A stretch of 64,000 nucleotides of DNA from Parcubacteria group bacterium (GTDB taxonomy: Bacteria > Patescibacteriota > Minisyncoccia > Moranbacterales > UBA2206), in the NCBI GenBank assembly GCA_041661275.1, contig JBAZUU010000005.1, positions 72 to 64,071 on the forward strand, in the 5' to 3' direction. Within the stretch, counting starts at the first letter, position 1; each line of letters begins with the position of its first letter. A program made the translations under genes and the position numbers. Below, in pieces: positions 58,471 to 64,000 of the stretch. The notes under the pieces are model-generated. The model made no database searches. It was not told where the DNA came from and saw nothing but the letters and a program-made list of their open reading frames with translations.

Positions 58471-61400
58471 ATGGGGGCAACGGAAACAATGGTTGAAACA
58501 AAAAACGAAAACAAAAAAAGAGAAACCAAGGCCTATATTTCTCTTCACGAAGCATCGGAACTTTTCGGGTACACTCCCGGCTATTTTGGCATCCTTTGCC
58601 GCCAGGGAAAATTGAAAGGAAAAAAGATCGGACGCAACTGGGTGACCAAAAGAGAGTGGGTGAAAAAATTTGCCAAAGAAAATGTGACCAACGGTAAGGG
58701 TGGCGGATTGAATTTTTGGGACGCGGACGCCCAATCAAAATACGTGGGGGCGATGAAAGAGAAGTTGGAAAACGCCAAGGGCGACAGTAAGATTTTTTTG
58801 GTGCGTTCGATCAGAACCGCCAAAAATTTTGTCCTGGGGATTTCCACCCGGCTCAATCTGATTGAAAGAAAAATCATCGCCAAAGAAAAAGCCAACGAGG
58901 AAAATGAAGGCGACAATTCTTTCTCGGCTCTCGAAGGAAAATCTCTGTCGTTTTTCGTGAGTCTCATCTTTCTTCTTTTTGTTTGCGCCTCGCCATACTT
59001 TTCCAAAATAAATTTCGGGGGAGAAAAAAATAGCCAACCGGAAATTCTGGGAGTGGAAACTTTGAGTCCGGAAAATTCCAATAATGAAAATGGAACCGCT
59101 TCCGGATTTGGATCGGAAACCGGAAAAAATTTGGCGCAAAAATATTCTACCGGCGTTCAGGAAAATGTGACCATCGATGAAATTCTTTTGGCTCTCAAAA
59201 TTAAAAAAGACGGCAATGATAATTTGGCGGGTGATTTGAAAATAAAAAGAAACGGAAAATTTAGAATCGCCGCTGGAGCCATCAATTCTCGAAAAATAGA
59301 GGATCATTCTATTACCGGAAAAGATATTAAAAAAAATGCCGAATTGGAAATAAAAGAACTGACTACCAGCGAAGATATTATTGTCGGTGGAAATTTGTCG
59401 GTGTCCGGCACGCAGATCAGTTCCGGTCTCATGACTTTTCAAAACGGCCTGACGGTTACGTCGGGCAATGTTTTGTTTTCCACCAACGGCACGATAACGC
59501 AAACGGGAAACGGGCAGGTGACGCTTGGCGGCAATCTTTCCGCGCCGACAGGATCAATCACTACGCTTTCCGCGACAACGATAAACAACGTTACAACAGC
59601 CACCATTGCTACCGCCAACATTACCACTGTTAATCTGGGAACCAACACCATCACCGACGGCAATCTCACTGGTTCCTGGAATTTTAATTCGGGAAATCTG
59701 ACCGGTGTTGGAACGATCGCGGCCGGAGCGACTACTCTCTCTGGCAATTTGGATATGCAAAATTATCTGATCGTGAATATCGGCAACGCTAACACCGATT
59801 TTCGCGCGGACGGCGGGTTGACTCTGGCCGGTTCGATTTTGCCGTTCACTGACGTGTCCATAAATCTCGGCGACGGGACGCATCGTTTCAATAATATCTA
59901 TGTGGCCAATATCAACACCTCCGGCATGAGTACTTCCGGACAAGCCATCTTCACCTATGAACCGATCTCGACCGCTTTCGCTCAATCAGCCGTTCTTATC
60001 AATCCGACCAACGCCATCGCCAATGCGCCGCTTTTGGGAGTTGGCGTCGGCGGCGCGCAGAGATTTTTGGTGGACGAAGATGGCGATGTGACAGCGGCGG
60101 GGAATGTGACAATAAGCGGCGCCGGCAATAATTATTTCGCGGGCAACGTTGGCATCGGGACGACGAATCCTTTGCAAAAGTTGCATGTAGAAGGGCATTG
60201 CATCACCGGTGATGCCCGGCTTTCTGTTTGGAACCCGGAAACGAAACAAATGGGGACGATACGGTTTGACGCGGTCAAAGGCGGAGAATACGCCATGTCT
60301 CTCGACGAAAAAACCGGAAAACTCGTTCCGGCTAAAATCAAGGGACTTTTGGATATGGGAGTGAAGCCGATTTTCAAAATCACAACTGTTGATGGGCGAA
60401 TGATACGGACAACTGGAAATCATCCTTATTTAGTAAAAGAAAGCAAAAAATCCGCAATAAATGCGGATTCCTTGGCGAGCACCAACCTGGTGCGAAGCTC
60501 GGACTTGTCATTCCTATACGGTAATACTAACAGAAACGAAAAATATGTCAAGTCGCTGTCGCTGTCGCAAATTGTGGATAACCACGAGGGTCGTGGAGGT
60601 GAGGGGAATCGAACCCCCGGACTCTGGAATGACAAGTCCGAGTCCGCACCAAGCCACCCCCATGACTCAAATATTATACCACAAAATACTGTTTGGACAA
60701 AGGTAGCGGAGCTTTCAGAAGAAGATGAAATAGCGGTAGCTGATGATGACTTGACGAAAATAAAATTCGTTCGCATCGCTCGCATTGAAATTCTTCCTTC
60801 CGAGCAGGTTTGGGACATCGAAGTCGAAGGCACTCACAACTTCGTCGCTAACGGCATTATCGCCCACAATACCTATATTAATGGAAATTTAGGAATCGGC
60901 ACGACCAATCCCGGCGCCTCTCTAGATGTTTTTGGAGGATCGATCAAAACTACCAATCAATTCATCACCACTCTTTCCACCGGCACCGCTCCCTTTGCGG
61001 TTTCTTCAACTACACTAGTGACAAATCTCAATGCTGATTTATTTGACAGCTACCATGCCGGAAACGCCAGCGGCAATGTTCCCGTTTCCAACGGTACGGT
61101 TAACACTGACCTGAACGCTGATTTGCTCGACGGACAACACGGCAACTATTATCTGACAGCGGCCAATATTAGCGGAACGCAAAATTATATTTCCAAATTC
61201 GGCGTTTCCGGAAACACTCTGGGAAATTCTCTTATATATGATACCGGAACATACGTCGGCATCGGCTCCACCGGCCCAACGGCACGACTCCAAGTGGTGG
61301 GAATTGATTCTCTTGACACGTCTTTCGCCGCCAATATAGGTGGAGCAACGGGTACAGGACTCATCGTAACAAATCAAGGCAACGTCGGCATCGGGACGAC

Positions 61401-64000: not shown

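Follow-up and report, generated by a model that had tools for sequence, protein, structure and literature searches.

A 64,000-nt stretch of contig JBAZUU010000005.1 (positions 72 to 64,071, forward strand) from the Parcubacteria group bacterium assembly GCA_041661275.1, hereafter the window, ends inside a giant gene for a repetitive fibre protein that is interrupted by two inteins at the same point of its repeat unit. The locus combines a fractured gene with a split intein, a known kind of arrangement seen here in a host protein and a lineage where it was not expected. One intein (intein 1) is contiguous, whilst the second is divided between an N-terminal half (IntN) in the gene that crosses the window edge and a C-terminal half (IntC) that opens a separate downstream gene. 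It is probable that the two genes together specify one giant surface fibre, with intein 1 predicted to excise in cis, the split intein predicted to splice in trans, and a nuclease and a small open reading frame (ORF), termed hb, acting as a putative homing module between the halves. The anatomy of the locus, its motifs, the conservation of its layout and the fold class of the nuclease were established as follows. Coordinates beyond 64,000 are window equivalents taken from the parent contig.

58471..64000 (+), on to window-equivalent 66417: N-terminal gene of the fractured fibre protein (gene 1), 2648 aa in total, from the parent contig
58531..58671 (+): helix-turn-helix (HTH)-like N-terminal segment, aa 21-67; weak PHROG excisionase matches, E 7e-4
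58945..59001 (+): single hydrophobic stretch LSFFVSLIFLLFVCASPYF, aa 159-177, read by eye from the sequence; putative membrane anchor
60142..60198 (+): GIGTT unit, N-extein flank of intein 1 (GNVGIGTTNPLQKLHVEGH)
60199..60870 (+): intein 1, contiguous class-1 mini-intein of 224 aa, from profile matches and motifs
60871..60912 (+): Thr+1 and the resuming GIGTT unit (TYINGNLGIGTTNP)
61378..63393 (+): intein-free run of GIGTT units with a near-invariant 24-nt DNA core
63370..63426 (+): GIGTT unit, N-extein flank of the split intein (GNVGIGTTNPLQKLHVNGH); 80% DNA identity to the intein 1 flank
63427..63744 (+): IntN of a naturally split intein; TIGR01445 E 2.4e-7, IntN hidden Markov model (HMM) E 9e-48
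63745..64000 (+): start of a low-complexity linker leading in frame from IntN to the nuclease; continues past the window
window-equivalent about 64672-66339 (+): Zn-ribbon/HTH/PD-(D/E)xK nuclease, with the gene 1 stop at 66415-66417; parent contig
window-equivalent 66508-66978: hb, an ORF of 156 aa
window-equivalent 66980-70531: gene for IntC and the C-extein, 1183 aa

The frame that starts at ATG 58471 was read codon by codon and was open to 64000 on the forward strand (1843 codons, zero stops). This agreed with a preliminary description of the window and with independent assemblies. That description had attributed the absence of the frame from the ORF list solely to its missing stop, which was correct, as frames running off the window end go unlisted. 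The adjacent sequence was retrieved as a 49.7-kb contig, L001 (L-numbers denote fetched loci and P-numbers database protein relatives), which was found via a neighbouring 129-aa protein and matched the window base for base over 16 kb. On this contig gene 1 is complete (L001:10586-18532), ending at 2648 aa. The supposed giant ORF is therefore only the first part of a gene fractured in two: the C-terminal half of its second intein begins a separate gene downstream.

Within the window the gene 1 product contains 11 units of the form G-x-[VL]-G-[IV]-G-[ST]-T, in line with the approximately 10 GNVGIGTT-type units reported earlier. The DNA core of the unit is the 24-mer GGCAACGTCGGCATCGGGACGACG, present in nine copies at ≤1 mismatch between 60142 and 63393 (expected, 0). 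A profile search indicated that the extein resembles phage tail-fibre PHROGs 9942 and 18345. The hydrophobic stretch at aa 159-177 is compatible with the membrane anchoring proposed earlier, as a putative anchor read from the sequence, and the HTH-like segment ahead of it is presumably cytoplasmic. DNA-binding-like, cytoplasmic-type domains precede the hydrophobic anchor in these fibres, an odd N-terminus for a surface protein. The type of domain varies, being an excisionase-like HTH in the window fibre and paired Phage_int_SAM core-binding domains in L008:419-1500. Both interruptions of the fibre, at 60199 and 63427, were confirmed to follow GNVGIGTTNPLQKLHV[E/N]GH, an identical point of the GIGTT unit, and each opens with Cys and carries a TxxH motif. 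The presence of two paralogous Hint elements at one repeat position was thereby upheld, with identical unit flanks and profile matches for both segments.

Intein 1 starts with Cys577 (CITGDARL, 60199), has TTGNHPYLV as block B (the TxxH motif, 60409-60435) and ends in ...VEGTHNFVANGIIAHN at 60870, after which Thr (60871-60873) and a GIGTT unit follow in frame. Its blocks F and G read VWDIEVEGTHNFVANGIIAHN, giving the junction VWDIEVEGTHNFVANGIIAHN/T (a slash marks a splice junction). A match to Pfam Intein_splicing was obtained with E 1e-19, and both TIGR01445 (N-terminal) and TIGR01443 (C-terminal, E 1.5e-9) also matched. Sequence and the TIGR01443 profile thus agreed with the terminal His-Asn, the Thr at +1 and the in-frame resumption of the repeat described previously. 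The closest solved structure was the Npu DnaB mini-intein 4o1r, whose alignment reached the C-terminus of intein 1 in two pieces that flank an insert. This insert of ~86 aa (60439-60696) lies exactly at the canonical endonuclease/split site. In an in-frame insertion test, a GIGTT unit stood before intein 1 and the fibre resumed in the same frame after it, the flanks being continuous once the insert was removed. No intein-free orthologue for direct comparison with this site was found in the fetched loci; a comparable intein-free unit, GIGTTNPLQKL, is present in an upstream 1502-aa fibre paralogue. Judging from these features, intein 1 should excise in cis, with …KLHVEGH-TYINGNLGIGTT… as the expected ligated junction. 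The two elements had been described as either splicing inteins or bacterial intein-like (BIL)-type domains. Canonical class-1 character with DnaB mini-inteins as the closest relatives was found, and assignment to the BIL/pretoxin-HINT group was not supported.

The second segment matched the N-terminal splicing model only (TIGR01445). It contains Cys1 within CMTGDTLL (63427), the Arg/acidic loop and block B as TTANHPYLV (63715-63741), and gene 1 then terminates after the linker and nuclease without intein blocks F and G. Orthologous IntN ends were seen in L005 and L008. The second element was therefore Hint/intein-related, as first described, but it is the N-half of a natural split intein and not a contiguous one. 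Downstream, hb starts ninety bases past the gene 1 stop and beyond a second in-frame stop (TGA, then TAA), and the IntC gene begins one base after the hb stop. The product of the IntC gene opens with MSTAVK, has the form MSTAVKDNLRKWLKVTDLEVGMKIAVP…VWDIEVEGTHNFVAG…GGIYAHN/TYISGG at its start, and consists of IntC, Thr+1 and 1059 aa of fibre, the last comprising roughly twelve GIGTT units, the Peptidase_S74 domain and a coiled-coil tail. The IntN and IntC halves are of ~105 and ~124 aa, respectively, and retain the catalytic residues CMTGDT, TTANH and YAHN/T. Comparison of the two inteins gave 30/52 identities in the N-part and nearly identical F/G blocks; by these sequence criteria they are diverged paralogues. 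Removal of the split intein would be expected to produce the junction …LHVNGH-TYISGG…, in full …KLHVNGH-TYISGGLFLGAN…. Read-through or frameshifting that would join gene 1 to hb and the IntC gene was considered and rejected, given the two in-frame stops and the location of IntC in another frame. The independent assemblies from ENA and Logan agreed exactly over the stop, hb and IntC start, which were also present in JGI and two NCBI metagenome-assembled genomes (MAGs). In the NCBI records of the MAG, GyrB and hb are present and the 2648-aa product is absent, this product having been called as a gene only by JGI and ENA. Fractured fibre genes are probably discarded or flagged as pseudogenes during automated annotation.

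The nuclease part of gene 1 combines an IS1/IS1595-type zinc ribbon, a Tc3-like HTH and a Cas4/RecB-like PD-(D/E)xK domain. More than 2800 database proteins belong to this family at 55–70% identity; nearly all are from Patescibacteria, most are free-standing, and their database labels read 'PD-(D/E)XK nuclease family protein' or 'transposase-like protein'. The PD-(D/E)xK nuclease between the intein halves, whose activity is predicted, is fused to IntN in the present locus, and L008 and 18 further loci have it as a free-standing gene. The accompanying hb is a conserved helical ORF. No match was found for hb in NCBIfam, PHROGs or Pfam, nor for the nuclease in PHROGs. A relationship of hb to the 23S_rRNA_IVP/Avd four-helix bundles is suggested by a FQDLEVYQK motif, and the profile tests for it were not significant: two of 16 members matched PF05635 (23S_rRNA_IVP) at E 0.0016 or worse, and hhalign of hb against a bona fide 23S_rRNA_IVP member from the window was not significant beyond the shared FQDLEVYQK. 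Pairs of nuclease and hb were also detected outside inteins (L006/7, L010/11, L030 and L086), indicating that they form a two-gene mobile unit. The unit occupies the intein position where endonucleases canonically insert. Most likely it served as the homing machinery by which the fibre gene was fractured. A GN[IV]G[SI]GT motif, equivalent to the GIGTT core of the fibre, was observed in a hypervariable hinge of the nuclease just before 'L.NWL.QY' (P0026, P0027, P0044, P0046, P0058, P0067 and the L001 protein at aa ~2190) and in the IntC loop of P0012. This hints that the module targets GIGTT-coding DNA, or that such DNA is a hotspot for recombination or insertion.

An IntC profile was used to scan one genome per GTDB species, yielding 278 loci. 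The best 80 were fetched and then classified after HMM scans that covered IntN, IntC, the nuclease and hb. IntN and IntC occupied different ORFs in 33 of these loci, and the classes were as follows.

11 loci: IntN, nuclease and hb, with IntC opening the next ORF and the nuclease fused to IntN in frame
19 loci: IntN, nuclease, hb and IntC, with the nuclease as a separate ORF
1 locus: IntN and IntC in different ORFs with a nuclease between them and no hb match
2 loci: IntN and IntC in different ORFs with neither a nuclease nor an hb match
16 loci: an ORF beginning with IntC, the N side lying outside the contig
35 inteins: contiguous, inserted at the same extein position

The module of N-intein, nuclease, small ORF and C-intein is thus shared by 30 or more Patescibacteria genomes at species level. 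No fetched locus had IntN, nuclease and IntC in one ORF, and hb intervened wherever a nuclease separated the intein halves except in the degraded L039, which has a nuclease remnant and no hb match. Several contiguous inteins often occurred per giant ORF, with a maximum of four. The preliminary description had called paralogous inteins in a repetitive fibre unusual; this holds against the searchable literature and not in nature, where 278 relative loci exist, many with several inteins per gene. A second example of the nuclease-fused form is L005. The classic free-standing form is represented by L008 (NCBI GCA_041643075.1), whose 1861-aa fibre gene ends …GIGTTGPLAKLHVEAS/CVTGDTIL…TTANHPYLTLLEDNPIISKGKINI at a stop, 14 aa past block B, and is followed by a free-standing 414-aa nuclease, hb, another small ORF and a 937-aa IntC-initiated gene. 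The sequence of 17 database proteins opens with a Met located 10–30 residues upstream of the same C-intein, which continues as …AHN/TY..G.LG[IV]GTT fibre. Across the family, Cys1 and TxxH were conserved in 54/54 cases each and HN/T at 82/84 C-junctions. The N-flank consensus was GNVGIGTT.P.QKLHVEG[QH]/C, and GIGTT units bordered every intein on both sides (…GIGTT.P.QKLHVEG[QH]/…/TYISGNVGIGTT…). This conservation of residues on both halves points to working split inteins rather than wreckage. The same profile retrieved genuine DnaB inteins (L053, L060, L078 and L091, with HN/SIEQDAD…). In IMG/VR only weak, generic intein relatives were found and the family is scarce there, leaving a phage origin unsupported.

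In public annotation the relatives are partial 'Hint domain-containing' or hypothetical proteins only. No description of inteins in fibre genes of the candidate phyla radiation (CPR)/Patescibacteria was found in the searchable full-text literature, outside which most subscription journals lie. In L004 (ENA ERZ1286166 contig_1302), the IntN-ending and IntC genes were ~9 kb apart with a PemK toxin, Bro-N and small genes between them. A larger insertion at the point of the split could explain this spacing. Many of the housekeeping genes there are broken up, suggesting frameshift errors in the long reads. The related Patescibacteria inteins P0162, P0212 and P0246 carry an NYN (PIN-like RNase) domain and may hold a different cargo at the endonuclease site.

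From these sequences we infer the following course for cis- and trans-splicing, for the homing activity and its target, and for ligation ahead of export. Two related selfish inteins would have invaded one point of the GIGTT unit (…GNVGIGTT.P.QKLHV.G[HQ] / intein / TYI.G.LGIGTT…). Intein 1 would remove itself in cis, and IntN and IntC would associate and trans-splice in the cytoplasm, ligating the fibre halves into a product of ~2490 aa (576 + 852 + 1059) and freeing both the IntN-nuclease and IntC. Ligation would have to precede export and is probably obligatory, because the C-fragment is without an anchor or signal and carries the S74 trimerisation chaperone at its C-terminus. The 24-nt GIGTT core probably supplies the homology, and possibly the cleavage target, for spread between units and paralogous fibre genes, such that a cassette of flank, intein and flank would pass by double-strand-break repair to any repeat or paralogue.

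Several points weigh against this course of events. Splicing, cleavage and homing are predictions from sequence throughout, and the export of a ~2500-aa protein that needs prior ligation is assumed. The ~890-aa C-terminal fusion on IntN is atypical among natural split inteins and might hinder association of the halves. The nuclease model was of moderate confidence (pLDDT 69.6), and the nuclease-hb unit could be a transposon-like element instead of a homing endonuclease: its zinc ribbon is of the IS1 type, its HTH resembles that of Tc3, and a faint Y1_Tnp gene adjoins one copy. Among the fetched loci no intein-free 'empty' double-GIGTT site, the expected homing target, was found, and for this reason co-conversion is offered as a model. 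The bulky in-frame nuclease fusion and the ~330-aa low-complexity linker, neither of which resembles anything on characterised split inteins, would also fit a decayed locus, in which a mobile nuclease-hb unit killed the intein, gene 1 is a truncated fibre, the downstream gene is a remnant or independent, and no trans-splicing occurs. The lack of the 2648-aa product at NCBI beside hb and GyrB, which may reflect treatment as a pseudogene, and the degraded appearance of L004 and L039 are consistent with decay. We regard it as unlikely, however, since a dead intein would quickly lose its catalytic residues, whereas no fewer than 30 species-level genomes retain the split layout, and in them Cys1, TxxH and HN/T are all but invariant on both halves. 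The C-extein ORFs are moreover long and intact with the S74 domain retained, and IntC genes always begin at the same intein position.

The combination of fibre, Hint domain, C-terminal nuclease and small ORF resembles a polymorphic toxin locus, and segment 2 had a weak PT-HINT match (E 0.03). Under this explanation the fibre would deliver a nuclease freed by a pretoxin-HINT-like domain, hb would provide immunity and the next gene would be a separate cassette. This is very improbable, as the Hint domain of gene 1 is only an N-half whose other half opens the next gene and leads into more fibre, the nuclease in most relatives is encoded by itself, is of cytoplasmic type and carries a zinc-ribbon/HTH for DNA binding, the nuclease-hb pair is also found away from fibre genes, and intein-specific models far outscore PT-HINT. 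Equally improbable is cleavage or rearrangement of the surface protein, without splicing, by BIL-type or other autoprocessing Hint domains. The host is indeed a variable, repetitive surface protein, which is reportedly the typical habitat of BIL domains, as Amitai et al. are said to have described in 2003. Both junction nucleophiles and the terminal His-Asn are nevertheless kept, with Thr+1 at 82/84 junctions; the extein resumes in register; and the nearest relatives are DnaB, DnaX and RecA inteins. For the BIL/pretoxin-HINT group itself the PT-HINT match lay below the cut-off, and the intein models were significant. Finally, repeat mis-assembly or a false stop or frameshift might mimic a split, and short-read contigs do break at GIGTT repeats (L002 ends within a repeated 30-mer). 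Such an artefact can hardly account for the data, as the stretch from the stop through hb to IntC is the same in the independent assemblies cited above and the architecture recurs in dozens of unrelated MAGs. The two-gene fibre with one contiguous and one split intein is therefore the reading that we retain.

The preliminary description of intein 1 recognised its intein blocks and overlooked the ~86-aa insert, which was found to be the translated antisense strand of a structured-RNA gene with the following features.

60444..60700 (-): antisense structured-RNA gene of ~230 nt, nested in intein 1
60700-60673 (-): promoter-like site 1
60661-60591 (-): transfer-messenger RNA (tmRNA)/tRNA-Ala-like domain
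60551-60524 (-): promoter-like site 2
60474-60444 (-): terminator

In a promoter and terminator scan the window copy scored for all three signal types. The insert DNA recurs with 67% identity in the hinge of the fused nuclease, where a second copy of the RNA element is located (L001:17273-17518, minus strand). Rfam tmRNA (RF00023) gave sub-threshold matches of 34.5 bits (E 6e-11) for the window copy and 36.4 bits, as compared to a gathering score of 47, that cover the acceptor stem and T-arm only. No Rfam family was obtained at the gathering threshold for the RNA element in 10 loci, and ARAGORN made no call. On the protein side the peptide GNRTPG is the antisense of the T-loop. An nhmmer search of 662 kb detected 31 copies in 24 loci, all antisense to intein or nuclease genes and found only within these inteins and the nuclease-hb module: in contiguous inteins, IntC loops, the nuclease hinge, or intergenic positions between nuclease and hb or hb and IntC. 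The loci besides L001 were L010, L015, L016, L020, L022, L024, L034, L038, L042-L044, L048, L049, L062, L063, L065, L069, L072, L081, L083, L085, L087 and L090.

An alignment of 25 copies showed a constant order, starting with an extended -10 promoter-like TG.TATAAT, a 7-bp acceptor stem, a hairpin and a canonical T-arm, and continuing with a second, near-invariant promoter-like site (TTGACA-N16/17-TAnnAT), a segment complementary to the hairpin region and a rho-independent terminator. In the acceptor stem the G3:U70 pair was conserved (G, 22/25; U, 24/25), as was A73 (25/25). The tRNA-like fold was supported by covariation that exceeded shuffled alignments (0.551 versus 0.204, with 0/500 shuffles as high and slid controls ≤0.233), and 89% of cells were paired as compared to 69% in shuffles. 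A long-range, covarying alternative duplex of ~30 bp was also detected and is copy-specific, with mean energies of -44.9 kcal/mol for the own partner and -23.3 for a foreign one (median z -7.4). Exactly one open frame is kept on the host-sense strand in 23/25 copies, indicating that the element is tolerated as a translated loop. Antisense regulation of the nuclease, partnership in a ribonucleoprotein (RNP) and mimicry of tRNA-Ala or tmRNA are candidate roles. Descriptions of tRNA-like RNAs in inteins were not found in the searchable literature, which leaves out most subscription journals.

A more speculative extension, which we hold to be possible but doubtful, is that a three-part mobile system is present, comprising the Cas4/RecB-like nuclease with its transposase-type DNA-binding head, hb and the dedicated antisense RNA as a functional partner, with the GIGTT 24-mer as DNA target. 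The acceptor domain of the RNA would potentially be alanylatable and switch to the ~30-bp alternative duplex, and the RNA may serve, for example, as an RNP cofactor, a nuclease regulator or a translation-factor decoy. If this were true, inteins would carry an RNA gene as cargo and one selfish element would colonise every repeat of a fibre family, fracturing genes repeatedly.

The window is part of a cellular chromosome, containing RecG, LigA, GatA, GyrB, type IV pilus genes and 13 tRNAs. Two 23S_rRNA_IVP (Avd-like four-helix-bundle) genes (56784-57167 and 57886-58275, forward strand) immediately precede the giant ORF, and similar genes also flank a nuclease copy in L010/L011. Two more giant genes lie in this island (46531-51039 and 52942-56724, forward strand), encoding the 1502-aa intein-free GIGTT fibre (with Peptidase_S74, a coiled coil and GIGTTNPLQKL) and a 1260-aa beta-helix protein, with AAA_14/DUF4143 and PDDEXK_3 genes between them. 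At the other end of the window, a 540-aa large serine recombinase ORF (2335-3957, forward strand) overlaps at its 3' end a cluster of four tRNAs (3874-4226, reverse strand), a junction that may be the edge of an integrated element.

Natural split inteins and fractured genes, described from DNA-metabolism enzymes of phages, are here extended to giant CPR surface fibres, and inteins in fibres count against the idea that only essential housekeeping proteins retain them. The contiguous, nuclease-free-standing and nuclease-fused states at one site form a natural series for endonuclease entry and gene breakage, and dozens of diverse natural split pairs with Cys1/Thr+1 chemistry are candidate orthogonal protein-ligation tools. 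The locus also points to a large, highly conserved and uncharacterised nuclease-hb mobile module with its >2800 nuclease homologues, and to an unannotated structured RNA with tRNA-Ala/tmRNA identity elements that lies antisense within protein-coding selfish elements. Because annotation pipelines cut fractured genes short or treat them as pseudogenes, they give a false picture of the surface proteomes of episymbiotic CPR bacteria.

The closest known arrangement is that of the fractured genes of Dassa et al. (2009), in which the halves of a split intein lie on the same strand with an endonuclease gene between them and the host gene is broken (PMC2677866). As in those genes, the break is at the endonuclease-insertion site, IntN ends the first ORF and IntC starts the second, with both ORFs on one strand. 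The 2009 examples were conserved DNA-metabolism enzymes, mainly of phage, with GIY-YIG or Vsr-like endonucleases, whereas the present host is a giant repetitive surface fibre on a Patescibacteria chromosome and its nuclease is an IS1-Zn/HTH plus Cas4/RecB-like PD-(D/E)xK protein (PMC2677866). Further differences from these genes are the presence of hb alongside the nuclease in nearly every split locus, the in-frame fusion of the nuclease to IntN in this genome and 10 others, contiguous paralogues in the same gene and an antisense RNA gene in the module (PMC2677866). The type of host protein and the nuclease class of the 2009 examples are circumstantial features and not part of the mechanism.

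Like the DnaE split inteins (Ssp/Npu) and engineered DnaB mini-inteins, the fibre inteins are of class 1, with Cys1, TxxH and His-Asn, and are split after block B. In those inteins the +1 residue is Cys or Ser and split halves are far apart in the genome, whereas here +1 is Thr, the halves are adjacent, IntC is of about 85–125 aa with variable loops and IntN may bear a large nuclease fusion. A Hint fold inside a large, variable, secreted or surface protein is shared with BIL/pretoxin-HINT domains, from which the fibre inteins differ in keeping the intein motifs and both junction nucleophiles and in profile scores that favour inteins.

The extein is like phage tail fibres of the endosialidase type in its tail-fibre PHROG matches and C-terminal Peptidase_S74, a build shared by the intein-free 1502-aa neighbouring paralogue, and is unlike them in being chromosomal (with GyrB, LigA and type IV pilus neighbours) and in having an HTH-like N-terminus, a hydrophobic anchor and inteins. 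The RNA element has the 7-bp acceptor stem, G3:U70, A73 and canonical T-arm of tmRNA and tRNA-Ala, without an mRNA-like domain, a tag ORF or an anticodon arm. Rickettsia palindromic elements (RPEs) are in-frame palindromic elements inside protein-coding genes that are translated as tolerated loops. The RNA element likewise lies in frame within coding genes and is translated as such a loop. Its two promoter-like sites, ~30-bp long-range duplex and restriction to the intein/nuclease module set it apart from tmRNA, tRNA-Ala and RPEs alike.

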